Notes: a model not told the origin generated them from the sequence alone. A DNA stretch of 64,000 nt from an uncultured virus (IMG/VR IMGVR_UViG_3300027712_000027) (IMGVR_UViG_3300027712_000027), one strand, 5' to 3'. Numbered from the stretch's first letter, positions 34,658 to 53,043 are shown. Numbers and translations are program-made.

Positions 34658-34734
34658 TGGCGGTCCCTGAGGGATTCGAACCCCCGACATACGGAGTAGA
34701 AATCCGTTGTTCTATCCAGCTGAACTAAGGAACC
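34658..34734 (-). tRNA. tRNA-Arg(UCU)
   Basis: Canonical cloverleaf; ACGGA-TTTCTAC-TCCGT anticodon arm; encoded CCA. Confidence 0.95.
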
Positions 34735-35161: not shown

Positions 35162-35206
35162 TTTTAGTCTCCTGTGTGTTTGTGCATTATGCACTGTGTG
35201 TTAATA

Positions 35207-35465
35207 GGTCCGTTCTGTTTCTAGGTGGAACCCATACCCAAGGTGATTACGCTGCTAGAGCGAATTCCTGTGCAAAGTTATCGTTTGCATTTATATCAGC
35301 CTTGGTCTACTCGTACCTTTACTATCAATAATCGAGCCTATTTCGCCCCCATCATATGTGGTCTGACTTCACAGACTGTAGAGTGAACTATCTCTAGCAC
35401 ATATGGTGGAGGCGTTGGGTACTGCCCCCAAGTCTTACTGATTTATTCTTTACGTCTCAACAACC
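35207..35465 (-). ncRNA. ssrA: Circularly permuted two-piece tmRNA (alphaproteobacterial type)
   Basis: Acceptor piece ending TTGGGGGCAGTACCCAACGCCTCCACCA (35404), 53-nt spacer, then coding piece starting GGGGGCGAAATAGGCTCGA (35350) with tag ANDNFAQEFALAA* at 35288-35247; outer ends approximate. Confidence 0.92.
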
Positions 35466-35474
35466 TTAGCATAG

Positions 35475-35508
35475 TATTTATTATACTACAAAAGTTTACA
35501 TTCGTCAA
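35475..35508 (-). promoter_or_regulatory. Dual early/late promoter for the tmRNA
   Basis: TTGACG-17-TATAAT overlapping TAAATA. Confidence 0.7.
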
Positions 35509-35740
35509 GTGTTTTCTTGATATAATCTTCAGCTTCAGCAACAGGCATGTAATACTTAAGAAGAATTTCCATAGCTTTTTTAAGAACACAATCTTGGATA
35601 AGATCTTCATGAAGATGCGGTGGAAGATCAGTTCGATTTTTCAATGAAGCGATATCTTTACAAATCAAAGTATAATCATCTTTAATTGTGGAAAGAACCA
35701 TCTCTTCTTTAACTTCTTGGGTAATCTTAATCATATACAT
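35486..35740 (-). CDS. Hypothetical protein
   Basis: 84-aa ORF coupled to the upstream gene. Confidence 0.55.
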   Translation of the reverse strand: MYMIKITQEVKEEMVLSTIKDDYTLICKDIASLKNRTDLPPHLHEDLIQDCVLKKAMEILLKYYMPVAEAEDYIKKTLDECKLL

Positions 35741-48585: not shown

Positions 48586-49603
48586 TTACTCGCAAAATGG
48601 CTTCATGTCTCGGAATTCGACATATGTGCCATTCTTAAGAGACTTACGCTCAAGAATATCGAGCATATCCATTGCGTCAATATAATCGTCAAACTTGTAA
48701 ATGTTAACAGTTTTACGGTCTTTGATAACCTTGATAATGAAACGCATTTGATTTCTCCTAGTATTCAGCCCAGATAGTACCATTGACCATATAACGAAGG
48801 TATACATGCGACGAACCAAATTCATTTGAATTGTCGTCGTGCCAAAGAGTTTTATAAACTGCATCGCCACGATCATTCGTTCTAAGGTATTCGGCGTCAA
48901 GAATTCCGTCGGAGTTATATCCGTTTGCTTCTAGAATCTCGGCAACTTGGACTTCGTCCAGTTTCGTAAGATTAAGCATCATCATTTCCTCAGTTACGTT
49001 CTGACCAAAAAACCATATTTTCTTTGCTGATGCTCTTGATGACTGGCTTAGAATGAGGCTTCTGGATCTCATCGATAAGAGCTTCAATCCAAGCCAATTC
49101 TCGCTTAAGAACACCAACACGACCCTGCCAGTGACCCGAAGCATAATCATGAGGATTATACCAATCCGGTGCAGCCAATGCCAATTCGGCACGATAAGCA
49201 CCTTCACGCTCATAAAGAGCTAGCAAAACCTTATCCATAGTCATTTCAATTCCTCCGAAGTATCATACCAGTTATCAGTTTCGAGCCGAGAATCAGAGTC
49301 GAAATCGCTACGGTGCTCGCCGTAGAAACCATAATACTCTTCATCGGTCATGAGTTTTTCGCATACAGCCCAAAGATCACCGTCCTGATGAAGATTCCAC
49401 GTATTACCATGAGAGTCGGTATATGCCGCATTATCACATACATCAGACCACGCATCCCAATATTCTTCGCGATGCGGACCGGTCATGATAATCTCGAGAT
49501 TCTCGGGGCGAATGTTAGTCCATTCAGAACTATATTGCTCGGCGAAATGCTGAGGAATATAAACACCGCGATTATCAGACATCAGAAGCTTCATACCAGA
49601 CAT
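48586..49603 (-). other. Run of small early CDSs (48586-~48747, 48758-~48986, 48990-~49244, 49241-49603)
   Basis: Coupled ORFs downstream of the promoter at 49631-49659. Confidence 0.55.
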
Positions 49604-49655
49604 AGTCATCTCCTCTTCAACCATAGACATATTCTACCGTAGTTTTTGATAGAAG

Positions 49656-50117
49656 TCAACATCTTTTTTCAGCTTTTTTGAGGACCAGCTGAATCTCCAT
49701 ATAGAAACGCTGATACTTGGCAATACGCTCGATATCTTTCTCGGTAACACCTTTCAACCTACGGATATCAGTATTATGACGCAGATCGCACAATTTAACC
49801 TTCATGGCATCAGTATTGGCGAATACTTTCGACTGATACTCAAAGTATGTCTCGCCTTTCTGCTTTGTGAGAGCAGCAATGCCATTGATTACACGATCAC
49901 TGATACCAGCTTCACGAAGTTCAGCGTAAGTAACGTCAGTGTCCTCAACAACGTCGTGACCGAGAGCGATGCACTGAAGCTCTTCGTCTTCGCTCTTGAG
50001 GTAGTGCATAACCTTAAGAGGATGGAGAATATACGGAGCGCCGCCACGATCAAACTGTCCAGCATGGGCGTTCGTTGCGATCAGAAGCATTTTCCCGAGC
50101 ATTTCACCACGTTTCAT
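49656..50117 (-). CDS. HD-domain small alarmone hydrolase-like protein (SpoT/Mesh1-type)
   Basis: AHAGQFDRGGAPYILHP..V; ALGHDVVEDT; VKLCDLRHN. Confidence 0.85.
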   Translation of the reverse strand: MKRGEMLGKMLLIATNAHAGQFDRGGAPYILHPLKVMHYLKSEDEELQCIALGHDVVEDTDVTYAELREAGISDRVINGIAALTKQKGETYFEYQSKVFANTDAMKVKLCDLRHNTDIRRLKGVTEKDIERIAKYQRFYMEIQLVLKKAEKRC

Positions 50118-50172
50118 TGTGTTCTCCTTATCGTATTACCATTATACCTCTCTTATGAGAAAAAGTCAATCC

Positions 50173-50930
50173 CTAATGTTGGATACGATCGTTACCATTT
50201 TGGTTACGTTTCTCAAGAAACTCCTCGACTTCCATACAGGCGTCCGTAAGAACATCCAGTAATGATATTTCGTCCGGATCCGTGGCTTCCATATATTGAT
50301 CGATAACTTCAAGTAGAAGTTCATTCAGTTCAATAAGATGGGTCATATTAGTCATCACTTAGTTCCTTTCATCAGTCAATGCCGCATGATCCACTCAAGA
50401 CGATCAATCTCTTCTCGAAGCTCAGCCTTTTCGTCGATTGCCTTACCAAGATCTATTATAAAGGTTGTGCAGCTAGTTTTCAACTCTATAATCTCTTCTC
50501 GCAGTTGTTTAATATCAGCAATAGCATCCATCAAATCATTATCAATGTCTGCATCACCAATATTAATACCAACCAGCTTTTCAAGTCGTTCGATAATATC
50601 CATCACTTACGCCCTTTCATAAACAAAAGCAGAGAAGCTACACCAAACCCAATATAGAAGTTAGTGCCCAGACTCAGCAGAACAGCGCCACCAATAAGCA
50701 GGGCAGTGTTCAGCATAATCGATGCCAGTGCATCACGTTCATTATCAGTCATATCAATCAGCTCCATATCTAGCAACATCACGGCCAATAGTTTGACCAG
50801 CATTCCAACCCTTGAGCCATTCATTATAACCAAATGACTCAGTTACTGGATCAAATGGGTTATCAGTGACAGGCTGACCTTTATGGCCAGCATAGCAACC
50901 ATCATTATATGCCTTTTGAGCGTTTTTCAT
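50173..50930 (-). other. Run of four small early CDSs
   Basis: Coupled ORFs downstream of the promoter at 50958-50986. Confidence 0.55.
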
Positions 50931-50957
50931 TTCGTTTCCCTCTTCAACCATAGACAC

Positions 50958-51082
50958 ATTATACCTCAGTTTTTGATAGAAGTCAACACTAATCGACGAA
51001 ATGTTTGTATCGAAAAAAGATACAATCGTTCCGCAGATTTGCCTAAATCAAGTGTTGACTTTTTTTACGAGACGAGTATAAT
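50958..51082. promoter_or_regulatory. Divergent promoter pair with phased palindromes at the coding-strand switch (cassette 4)
   Basis: Minus promoter 50958-86; GAAAT-GTTT-GTATC at 50998; GATAC-AATC-GTTCC at 51019; plus promoter TTGACT-16-TATAAT at 51055-82. Confidence 0.8.
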
Positions 51083-51108
51083 CAGTACTGTCGCTTTGAA
51101 GGAACAAG

Positions 51109-51228
51109 ATGATGAACAGGAAAATTAATCCTATAGCACGAGATCTCGCCTCTGGGAAATTCAAACAGCGTATCGTCCGGCCGAAAAAAGGTCGTGGTAG
51201 CTATAAGAGAAAGCGTAAAAACGCTTGA
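51109..51228 (+). CDS. ArfA-like alternative ribosome-rescue peptide (39 aa; absent from the ORF track)
   Basis: MMNRKINPIARDLASGKFKQRIVRPKKGRGSYKRKRKNA resembles the ArfA core (F.QR....KKG.GSY.RK); AAGGA ribosome-binding site; own promoter. Confidence 0.7.
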   Translation: MMNRKINPIARDLASGKFKQRIVRPKKGRGSYKRKRKNA

Positions 51229-51277
51229 CTTATTTTGATATCTAAGGTATAATCGTAATATGATAAGGAGAACGAAA

Positions 51278-51457
51278 ATGGTTGAACGATACAAGGTTAC
51301 GTATACGGTAAAGCAAGCCGAAAATGGTGGTTTGCTCACGGATTACAGCAAGAAGTTCAATACTTTTTCAGAAGCTGTTAAGTATATCCGTGCGGTTCGT
51401 TCTGGTCCTCTCTCTTATCAGATGGTCGGTAATCCTATTTTGGAGAATGCACGATGA
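51278..51457 (+). CDS. Hypothetical protein
   Basis: MVERYKVTY...; AAGGAG ribosome-binding site; promoter at 51225-51253. Confidence 0.6.
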   Translation: MVERYKVTYTVKQAENGGLLTDYSKKFNTFSEAVKYIRAVRSGPLSYQMVGNPILENAR

Positions 51458-51714
51458 GAAATATATTAATTGGTCTTATACTGGCAAGTATTTCTGTGCC
51501 GGCTCTTGCCCATGATCGTCGACATTATCATCAACGCCATCACTATAATCATCAACGTAATAATAATGTTGGTGTCGGTGTTGGTTTAGGTATTCTTGGC
51601 TTGGGTATTCTCGGTGCTACAATTTATAACCAGCGCCAGCGTATACCCGATGTATGTATTATAGGATATGATCGGTATAATCGTCCGGTGTATGATCAGG
51701 AATGTTTCGAATAG
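51454..51714 (+). CDS. Small exported/membrane protein, His/Arg-rich with a Gly-zipper
   Basis: Signal peptide ...VPALA; HDRRHYHQRHH; GVGVGLGILGLGILG. Confidence 0.65.
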   Translation: MRNILIGLILASISVPALAHDRRHYHQRHHYNHQRNNNVGVGVGLGILGLGILGATIYNQRQRIPDVCIIGYDRYNRPVYDQECFE

Positions 51715-51720
51715 GAGAAC

Positions 51721-51873
51721 ATGATGGTAAAGATTCTGTTAGCTTTTCTTATGATAGCATTATGTGTGACTGTTGCGTTTTATTCAGAAATTCCTTTTAT
51801 ATCTGCACTTTGGGGATTCTCTGCGGGTATTTGGTTTATGATCACTGGTATTTTGATTGAAAGGAAACTCTAA
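51721..51873 (+). CDS. 50-aa two-helix membrane protein
   Basis: MMVKILLAFLMIALCVTVAF...; AGGAG ribosome-binding site. Confidence 0.55.
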   Translation: MMVKILLAFLMIALCVTVAFYSEIPFISALWGFSAGIWFMITGILIERKL

Positions 51874-52217
51874 TGAATTATCCTAATAGCTGGGTGATTT
51901 TAAAGATTACCGGTCCTGAAACTGAAAATAAAGATCCAACTGTATATGCATACAAGGTTCTTGCTGGTTGGTCAGGTAGCTACCTTAATGGTACTTCATG
52001 GCAGCTTAATAGTGGTATCGTTGATGTAGAAGAGGATAAAGAACATTTCCTTTTCTCGAGTCATTCTGGTTCAGTTTATATCTGCCATAAAGATACTTAT
52101 GGTATTAGTATGGCCACTGCTGAGGTTTGGGATACGTTGCAAACTAGATATCCTGGTCAAGTTGAACTTATGCCGGAGAATACCGACTGGTCGAAACTTA
52201 TTATGGAGAAAGTGTGA
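51873..52217 (+). CDS. Conserved phage hypothetical protein
   Basis: YKVLAGWSGSYL.G.SW.LNSGI...SGS.Y.C. Confidence 0.75.
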   Translation: MNYPNSWVILKITGPETENKDPTVYAYKVLAGWSGSYLNGTSWQLNSGIVDVEEDKEHFLFSSHSGSVYICHKDTYGISMATAEVWDTLQTRYPGQVELMPENTDWSKLIMEKV

Positions 52218-52429
52218 TGGAAAAGTATAAGGCATTGGTGGCTAGATATCTTCCGGCATTTGGTATCTACGAGGGTAAAGAAATGGCGAAGAAAGAGAGG
52301 ATTAACGAACTCATTCTTGAAATTGAATTCCCTAAAGATGACGCTCAAATGAAAATTATTCAGAAACAAATTGCAGATATCACTACCGTTCTAAAGCTTA
52401 TGGCAAAGGATAAGTATGATGTTGATTGA
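52214..52429 (+). CDS. Hypothetical protein
   Basis: 71-aa coupled ORF. Confidence 0.5.
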   Translation: MMEKYKALVARYLPAFGIYEGKEMAKKERINELILEIEFPKDDAQMKIIQKQIADITTVLKLMAKDKYDVD

Positions 52430-52754
52430 AACCAAATATGATGTTGGCCATACGTTCTGGGTTCCTCGTTCACGTAAAGTTTTTGAACAGGAGGAACTCA
52501 ATTATGAAGGCGAAACTTGATATCGCGATATCGAGGTTCTTGAACCATTAGCTAAATTGAAGAAAATCGTCTGTATCGATGTGCATGTTGGTCGGGTTTC
52601 TTCAACTAAATATGGCGTCAAGAATATCGATGATGGTGATAAAATGTTAACTTCTTTCTATCCAGAAGAAAACATTACGAATTATACCGAAGAGGAAGCT
52701 CTTGCAATTGCCAAGGGATATACCGAGGCAGGTAAAACGTACTACGGTAATTGA
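52419..52754 (+). pseudogene. 111-codon gene interrupted by an in-frame TGA at 52518-52520
   Basis: MLIETKYDVGHTFWVPR...EGET*YRDIEVLEPLAKLKKIVCID... reads continuously in one frame. Confidence 0.6.
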
Positions 52755-52758
52755 TCAT

Positions 52759-52832
52759 TGGGGAATAGTATAATGGTAGTACAGCGGACTTTGAATCCGT
52801 GAATCTTGGTTCGAGTCCAGGTTCCCCAGCCA
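52759..52832 (+). tRNA. tRNA-Gln(UUG)
   Basis: TGGGGAA/TTCCCCA acceptor; GCGGA-CTTTGAA-TCCGT anticodon arm; encoded CCA. Confidence 0.95.
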
Positions 52833-52851
52833 AATAACACAGGAGATTAAT

Positions 52852-53043
52852 ATGAATGTTGGTGATATTGTTGAATTGATTGACGAGAGCGTTTATGAAG
52901 GTAGATGGGCAGGTCGTATGACTGTGATTGATGTTTATTCAAGAGACATTATTGAAGGTAATTACGTTAGATGCATTCACCCAAGTATGGGTGTTACTGA
53001 TCTCGAAATTGATGACTTGGTAGTTATGGAAGAGGCCGAGTAA
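52852..53043 (+). CDS. Small SH3-like hypothetical protein
   Basis: MNVGDIVEL...; AGGAG ribosome-binding site. Confidence 0.55.
   Translation: MNVGDIVELIDESVYEGRWAGRMTVIDVYSRDIIEGNYVRCIHPSMGVTDLEIDDLVVMEEAE

Follow-up and report, generated by a model that had tools for sequence, protein, structure and literature searches.

A predicted 39-codon ArfA-family gene with an ordinary stop codon in a T4-like freshwater phage, and its short-form relatives in alphaproteobacterial phages and Pelagibacterales

The gene described here lies at 51109..51228 (+) in a 64,000-nt stretch of DNA from an uncultured virus (IMG/VR IMGVR_UViG_3300027712_000027), referred to below as the window, and by its sequence it is a short-form member of the ArfA family, with 39 codons followed by TGA. 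The assignment draws on a match to the Pfam family PF03889, on profile matches to solved structures and on codon-level conservation. The predicted peptide appears to be a minimal member of the family, equivalent to residues ~8-46 of E. coli ArfA, and short, stop-terminated forms are common both in the phages of Alphaproteobacteria and in SAR11 chromosomes. The window copy is one more of the catalogued but little-studied short ArfA peptides of phages and SAR11, for which this is the ordinary and correct annotation, and the interest lies more in the short-form pattern than in the copy itself.

Read from the sequence, 51109..51228 (+) translates as MMNRKINPIARDLASGKFKQRIVRPKKGRGSYKRKRKNA and then ends in TGA, in agreement with the 39-aa ORF of the original prediction. 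Another in-frame TGA lies 9 nt 5' of the first ATG, so the 39-codon frame is bounded and is no part of a longer gene. A Shine-Dalgarno-like motif, GAAGGA (51098..51103, +), is placed 5 nt before the first ATG and is the same in the relative L013. The UGA stop at 51226-51228 comes 7 residues past Y32, the last residue of the KKGRGSY core, leaving a tail of KRKRKNA, so that the earlier description of the peptide as 'pre-truncated' by a real stop just past the core also holds. The ORFs up to 50957 all lie on the - strand and 51109..51228 is the first on the + strand, as had been claimed when it was called the first gene after a strand switch; given this arrangement, the peptide gene opens a rightward, early-type unit.

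A strong promoter had been proposed to drive the gene, and a sigma-70-type sequence, TTGACT-16-TATAAT (51055..51082, +), does agree with the consensus at 11/12 positions, a call made by consensus match only; L013 keeps this promoter with one spacer change. The window has 12 sequences of the form TTGACN-N15-17-TATAAT, where shuffles lead one to expect 0.42. A divergent member of this class, likewise a consensus match, is found at 50958..50986 (-), and the next promoter, TTGACT-17-TATAAT (51225..51253, +), would serve a downstream gene of 59-65 aa and has a -35 box that overlaps the TGA stop of the arfA-like ORF. To the left, a 67-aa gene at 50754..50957 (-) is weakly RMF-like, scoring 25.3 bits with PF04957 where the cut-off is 27.9 (profile positions 7-49 of 53), and two of six relatives carry PF04957. 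This gene and the arfA-like gene are divergent and have promoters of one class, and an RMF-like gene beside an ArfA-like one would make a translation-directed early module.

By codon-level comparison the ArfA-like ORF is a genuine gene under purifying selection. A degenerate DNA pattern matched 11 viral contigs, in three of which the peptide is present: an identical copy, a close relative and a version at 61 % GC. Against this high-GC viral relative (L014), 25/28 core residues and 55/84 nt are identical and there are 19 synonymous codon differences, and the near relative L013 differs at 5 nt, of which 3 are synonymous changes. A spurious ORF lying between two promoters was also considered, and is ruled out by the codon-level conservation seen with L013 and L014.

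The claim that the peptide is ArfA-like, together with the search against the ArfA family that had been proposed as its check, is borne out by PF03889, which the window peptide matches with 33.4 bits (cut-off 25.5; E 3.1e-8). The alignment spans peptide residues 17-38 only, that is, the tail half, and corresponds to profile positions 22-43 of 44. Other collections were less informative for the window peptide: a scan of NCBIfam, including its ArfA models, returned 0 families at E <= 10, PHROGs gave weak matches to families of unknown function (best E 0.0012), and DUF7230 (PF23876) gave no match at E <= 10. The nearest proteins, P0001, P0002 (95 % identity) and P0003, are 38-40 aa long and all three carry PF03889; P0003 is 89 % identical over the aligned 70 % of the query and 70 % identical over the full alignment, and the near-identical P0001 and P0002 have already been called in public collections with PF03889. 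A profile built from four close sequences drew 404 proteins at E <= 0.001 from 1.84 billion representatives, and the consensus of 65 short members reads xxKRNPIAKxLxxxKYxxRIVKPKKGKGSYxRK. The profile of these 65 matches six distinct sequences in the PDB, each an E. coli ArfA (E 1.6e-12 to 1.2e-11), so that ArfA chains are the only solved structures matched; the next match among 177,635 PDB sequences is a capsid protein at E 0.87. The alignment with E. coli ArfA runs gap-free over residues 12-51 (E 1.6e-12). On this combined evidence from sequence profiles the gene is taken to belong to the ArfA family. The string of E. coli ArfA quoted in the original prediction is seen in part, 21 of its letters being present in the PDB ArfA chains.

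Residue correspondences were taken from the printed alignment of the subfamily profile with E. coli ArfA and applied to the window peptide. The residues kept (E. coli = phage) are N14 = N7, I16 = I9, L20 = L13, F25 = F18, Q27 = Q20 and R28 = R21, together with the block K33-Y39 = K26-Y32, and the common core of the two proteins can be written as N-x-I-x-x-x-L ... F-x-Q-R ... KKG-G-SY-x-R-K. Replaced are A18 by R11, L19 by D12, P23 by G16 and L24 by K17, and in place of the first 13 residues of E. coli ArfA the phage peptide has 6 unrelated ones. These 13 residues contact h44 and S12 in the E. coli protein, and it is only on the ribosome that ArfA becomes ordered.

Phage residues 18-38 align to E. 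coli residues 25-45, which places the end of the peptide at E. coli-equivalent residue 46. In the truncation experiments described in part of PMC5378476, E. coli ArfA truncated at N47 is active and ArfA cut after M40 is inactive. Five basic residues of the phage peptide fall within the interval equivalent to M40-N47, and a KKGKGSY block followed by at least ~5 further basic residues is present in the sequence, as KKGRGSY plus KRKRKNA; by the E. coli truncation data (PMC5378476) the basic tail would be just sufficient in length. Matters are less clear for the contact with RF2. Sections of the same study describe L19, L24 and F25 of E. coli ArfA as a hydrophobic patch that binds RF2 residues W319, V198 and F217, and P23 as packing against A1492/A1493 (PMC5378476). 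Of the three hydrophobic residues of the patch, the window peptide keeps one (F25 as F18), along with the neighbouring L20 (as L13). Proline is kept at the P23 column by most subfamily members, judging from the 65-member consensus, and the window peptide has G16 there. The alignment suggests that the ribosome-docking tail and the A-site segment are whole, and that the known RF2 interface is only partly kept.

E. coli ArfA itself (YhdL; PF03889; PDB 5H5U, 5MDV, 5U4I and others) is 72 aa long, compared with 39 aa for the window peptide, and is carried by E. coli rather than by a phage with a presumed alphaproteobacterial host. The window gene ends in a real stop and lacks the C-terminal extension that bears the RNase III site in E. 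coli ArfA. BrfA of Bacillus subtilis and ArfT of Francisella are likewise described, in sections of the sources, as small rescue factors that depend on a release factor and have basic tails (PMC11633108; for ArfT, PMC6299226), but BrfA, unlike the window gene, is made from a non-stop mRNA (PMC11633108). No sequence match between the window peptide and either BrfA or ArfT was found here.

Among cultured phages, tblastn with the short and repetitive 39-aa peptide gave no match at E <= 10, and the less repetitive relatives P0003 and P0036 were used as queries. With P0003, 24 records were recovered at E <= 10, several of them GenBank/RefSeq duplicates, and in 21 the phage takes its name from an alphaproteobacterial host (Sinorhizobium 7, Pelagibacter 3, Roseobacter 3, Brevundimonas 3, Caulobacter 2, and Citromicrobium, Erythrobacter and Ochrobactrum 1 each); the remaining three are phages of Microcystis, Ralstonia and Escherichia. 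In the second search, 69 of 97 records were Acinetobacter phages matched in the N-half only, at E about 1, and these were left out of the counts. All ten of the cultured-phage homologues that were examined, most of them from phages with alphaproteobacterial hosts, have an in-frame stop, and of the nine in which the core is kept, eight have a tail of 5-12 residues, that of RXM gp10 being 28. PF03889 is matched over its cut-off by Cr30 (29.2 bits), Kabachok (38.8), Bajun (31.4), HTVC034P (25.7) and CRP-212 (33.3), and below it by HTVC027P (20.2); phiM12 gives no match.

Several of these genes already have a name. Gp10 of Citromicrobium phage vB_CbaS-RXM and the genes of the Brevundimonas phages (Kabachok, Papperlapapp and Kikimora) are annotated as alternative ribosome-rescue factors, RXM g10 being named ArfA in a passage of PMC8953757, and gp30 of pelagiphage HTVC027P is named ArfA in part of PMC12753301, where it is given as highly expressed in both the early and the late stages of infection, at 3 hpi and 12-15 hpi. 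They belong to the same family as the window gene and likewise have alphaproteobacterial hosts, and the Kabachok peptide resembles that of the window in its 39 aa and in its stop 7 residues past the aromatic, but their phages are of other groups (sipho-, podophages and jumbo phages) than the T4-like phage of the window. In the sections of PMC8953757 and PMC12753301 that concern them, these copies are known from annotation only, with transcript levels in addition for HTVC027P. A full-text search, with subscription journals outside its range, found no papers on the function of phage ArfA, on the short stop-terminated form or on SAR11 ArfA, and no experimental work with a phage or short-form member.

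Tail length was counted over the best 150 of the 404 proteins together with P0001 and P0002, 152 proteins in all, two of which lack the core motif and were left out; of the 150 with the motif, 67 have a tail of <= 12 residues after the aromatic, the median being 14. Pattern searches of viral contigs gave 121 matches, of which 26 were confirmed, three with the KKGRGSY core and 23 with KK-Y in place of KKGKGSY. This GKGS-less sister group (L015-L037, and Sinorhizobium phage phiM12 gp363, L040 1501-1641) retains the N-half, NPIARDL..KY.QRI. Its peptides resemble that of the window in N-half and length but have a three-residue deletion and no ArfA Pfam match. DUF7230 is weakly matched by two of eight representative GKGS-less viral peptides and by phiM12 gp363 (15-18 bits, cut-off 27), and an alignment of eight viral sequences matches the short-form ArfA profile with an hhalign probability of 98.3 % (E 1.4e-14).

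The same form is found on cellular chromosomes. The pattern PKKG[KR]GS[YF]xR matched at least 600 stretches of cellular genomes, of which 391 were confirmed among the matches listed and 80 loci were kept. By their titles, and among the matches listed, 78 of these 80 belong to Pelagibacter, Pelagibacteraceae or Pelagibacterales, the other two being an 'uncultured Alphaproteobacteria bacterium' and Phyllobacterium. Among the matches listed, an in-frame stop is present in 80/80, the tail is <= 12 residues in 79/80, and it is 5 residues in 51/80, compared with 7 in the window peptide. The Pelagibacterales short forms (L055 3989-4111 and loci L048-L127) show 46-77 % identity over the best aligned segment (80 loci, among the matches listed), and at 33-50 aa with a real stop they resemble the phage copy, but they are cellular and have a conserved chromosomal setting. 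In a complete Pelagibacterales chromosome the gene and the stop of a photolyase-related gene overlap (ATGA), and a pfkB kinase gene converges on it from the other side; the setting is that of core chromosome rather than of a prophage. The original prediction had implied that a 'pre-truncated' form would be rare, and this did not survive the comparison, for it is standard in a large subfamily, chromosomal in Pelagibacterales and frequent in phages.

Of 201 Pelagibacterales genomes sampled, 107 matched PF03889 in a six-frame search at E <= 0.01, a count that includes one unpublished genome (G115), and 49 did so over the cut-off. In a sample taken across the class, 10/401 genomes matched at E <= 0.001 and 7/401 over the cut-off, three of the ten being small genomes already counted. 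In 7/401 sampled genomes, from Alphaproteobacteria other than SAR11, PF03889 lies in longer open frames, with tails of ~20-70 residues in L139 and L141 (1288-1767), two larger genomes; such genes may belong to prophages or be ArfA genes of canonical style. Among 14 control genomes PF03889 was found in E. coli alone, and Caulobacter vibrioides was present among the controls of the RF01849 and PF00472 searches. Only two RF-1-domain genes occur in each of four Pelagibacterales genomes, so ArfB is apparently absent from them; Phyllobacterium has a third such gene, in a 150-aa frame. Sections of PMC4235212 place arfA in many Gammaproteobacteria and in some of the Betaproteobacteria and give C. crescentus as lacking any homologue, and a passage of PMC11633108 reports arfA in 0/2,376 alphaproteobacterial genomes by a nucleotide HMM (nhmmer). 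The homologue in Caulobacter phage Cr30 scores over the PF03889 cut-off though the hosts appear to be without the gene.

The window is from a T4-like phage of freshwater. Among its 35 large ORFs, PHROGs identified T4-type baseplate wedge and hub proteins, a tail tube and a gp2-like end protector, as well as replication genes of T4 type, including a gp32-like SSB, a gp59-like helicase loader, a gp43-like DNA polymerase, UvsX and a gp41-like helicase. The DNA polymerase is at most 50.1 % identical to that of any cultured phage, its best matches being cyanomyophages, and the public runs in which half or more of the sampled words of 49500-53000 occur carry the label of freshwater metagenomes (X1, possibly the source run, X2 and X3), none of the runs listed being of RNA. 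The phage has a tmRNA gene of its own, an alpha-type, two-piece gene at 35203..35512 (-) with the tag ANDNFAQEFALAA, called by Rfam and by ARAGORN (as a permuted tmRNA). It scores 111.7 bits with RF01849 (alpha_tmRNA; gathering score 50), against 221-307 bits for five cellular genes, and 94.3 bits with RF04321 (tmRNA_permuted). A promoter of the same class as that of the arfA-like gene, TTGACG-17-TATAAT (35480-35508, -), overlaps the 5' end of the Rfam and ARAGORN calls, so that the 5' end as called is provisional. A tRNA-Arg(tct) at 34658-34734 adjoins the tmRNA, and a tRNA-Gln(ttg) is also present in the window. A general co-occurrence of tmRNA with phage arfA was considered and rejected, RF01849 being absent from Cr30, phiM12, G001 and G007 and reaching 46.8 bits in Kabachok (<50).

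The alpha-type, two-piece tmRNA and the hosts of the cultured phages with homologues both favour the alphaproteobacterial host that had been thought probable from the start. Four Pelagibacterales genomes have tmRNA tags (ANESYAIAA, ANESYALAA, ANQKFALAA) unlike that of the phage, and a BLAST search with the phage tmRNA yielded only a 32-nt match in two of five genomes. Because of the tag mismatch, SAR11 or LD12 is not an obvious host, and compatibility with the RF2 of the host is not arguable from the Pelagibacterales genomes that hold the most similar chromosomal copies. Judging from these sequences, the host would be an alphaproteobacterium, and probably not SAR11.

As to function, it is somewhat favoured here that the peptide acts in rescue, through the RF2-dependent release, early in infection, of ribosomes stalled on broken mRNAs. 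By analogy with E. coli ArfA, the lysine/arginine-rich tail (KKGRGSY-KRKRK) would enter the mRNA entry channel, left empty in ribosomes that have stalled at truncated mRNA 3' ends, the middle part (F18-Q20-R21) would lie in the A site and recruit host RF2, and RF2 would then hydrolyse the peptidyl-tRNA so that the ribosome is freed. Canonical ArfA accumulates only upon tmRNA overload. Since the gene has a consensus promoter to itself and ends in an ordinary UGA, the phage peptide should be made constitutively, and from the gene layout its synthesis would be early and ungated by tmRNA capacity. The benefit would lie in recycling ribosomes held up on damaged mRNAs or on degraded ones of the host, in parallel to the phage's own tmRNA. 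Ribosome binding, the use of RF2, the timing and the benefit to the phage are all inferred. The main argument for a working rescue factor rather than an inhibitor is the retention of the gene on the chromosomes of streamlined Pelagibacterales that have no ArfB; the main counter-argument is that L19, L24 and P23 are not conserved, which makes a simple equivalence to E. coli ArfA doubtful. A complex prediction for Caulobacter RF2 with the peptide alignment gave a score of 0.29 (mark 0.32), which speaks for neither side.

The same replacements could mean that the peptide binds the ribosome without rescuing it, the tail docking while the altered N-half fails to activate RF2. It would then compete with SmpB-tmRNA or ArfB, or occupy vacant 30S/70S, and the outcome could be that phage products are shielded from tagging or that host ribosomes are idled. 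Of the three hydrophobic residues that touch RF2, two are replaced, as is P23 (contacts as given in part of PMC5378476), and a single change at A18 of E. coli ArfA is discussed in that study as allowing RF2 binding but not catalysis (PMC5378476). Pointing the same way are the weak likeness of the divergent neighbour to RMF, a ribosome-silencing family, and the 23 sister viral loci that keep the N-half without GKGS, which imply that the tail is plastic. An inhibitor is hard to square, however, with a single chromosomal gene in many streamlined, ArfB-less Pelagibacterales, and since the phage tmRNA carries a degradation-type tag, blocking trans-translation would hurt the phage's own gene; a non-rescuing binder is on the whole considered unlikely. 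Further removed is the notion that the likeness to ArfA is one of composition only, and that the peptide is a small, basic, nucleic-acid-binding one with a role unrelated to the ribosome. The peptide is indeed short and K/R-rich, and a low-complexity filter or its short length left it with no cultured phages found by tblastn, but N7, I9, L13, F18, Q20, R21 and KKG-G-SY align column by column with E. coli ArfA and only ArfA chains do better than the capsid protein in the PDB search, so that a purely compositional likeness is scarcely credible.

Whatever its activity, the gene could be controlled as E. coli arfA is, with the message cut or terminated before the stop to give a non-stop mRNA that is repressed through tmRNA. 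A weak hairpin over the last codons, followed by UUU at the 3' end of the ORF (51203..51233, +; -9.1 kcal/mol, z -2.18), would suit such a control. The UGA stop, however, sits within the 3' arm of this hairpin, so termination after the stem would still retain it, and in the closest relative, L013, the same hairpin collapses to -2.4 kcal/mol (z +0.27) through a synonymous G-to-A change, and it is therefore not conserved. Over its full 150 nt the arfA-like message is no more stably folded than its shuffles are (z 0.17), and a search for a conserved hairpin inside the ORF frame, comparing the window with L013, found none. Nor does the frame, which ends at E. coli-equivalent residue 46, have an extension that might hold a processing site, and stops at the equivalent place are the rule across the short-form subfamily. 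Where canonical family members have a non-stop mRNA and repression by tmRNA, the window gene has, at the DNA level, a real UGA and no conserved in-frame hairpin, and for these two reasons non-stop synthesis or tmRNA-coupled control of this gene appears unlikely, a message cut or terminated ahead of the stop being very improbable.

In passages of PMC4235212 and PMC11633108, the non-stop mRNA of ArfA and its feedback through tmRNA are treated as a hallmark. In contrast, a version of 35-45 aa with an ordinary stop is widespread, being found in many alphaproteobacterial phages and in a large fraction of the Pelagibacterales genomes sampled. Should the window peptide prove active, it would rank as the smallest ArfA in nature, and tmRNA feedback would be dispensable for the ArfA family. 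An active peptide would also give a handle on why phages invest in ribosome rescue, 39 residues being synthesisable and Cr30 offering a genetic system. It might be speculated, tentatively and with rather more doubt than confidence, that these peptides represent an undescribed branch of ArfA that provides backup or co-primary rescue in SAR11, where there is no ArfB, that has been spread by phages to Alphaproteobacteria without ArfA (e.g., Caulobacter), and that, together with the tmRNA and the RMF-like protein, would form part of an always-on early takeover in which ribosomes are stripped from decaying host messages.

Some other genes near the ArfA-family members may be mentioned. In Caulobacter phage Cr30 the ArfA-family ORF (L038 2435-2599) lies between two annotated CDSs and is itself unannotated, and the 5-kb stretch around it has annotated RNA ligase genes ~0.4 kb downstream and ~2.1 kb upstream. 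In the window, an 86-aa ORF at 51454-51714 (+) has a signal-like N-terminus, a histidine-rich part, HDRRHYHQRHHYNHQR, and a glycine-rich hydrophobic segment, and matches no Pfam or PHROGs family. About 1 kb from the arfA-like gene is a gene for a 153-aa HD-domain phosphohydrolase (49656-50117, -; phrog_990, E 1.4e-60; Pfam HD_4 22 bits, below cut-off), and in phiM12 a gene of the RelA/SpoT family lies ~0.9 kb downstream of the ArfA-like gp363. The phosphohydrolase and RelA/SpoT neighbours hint at a link to alarmone metabolism.
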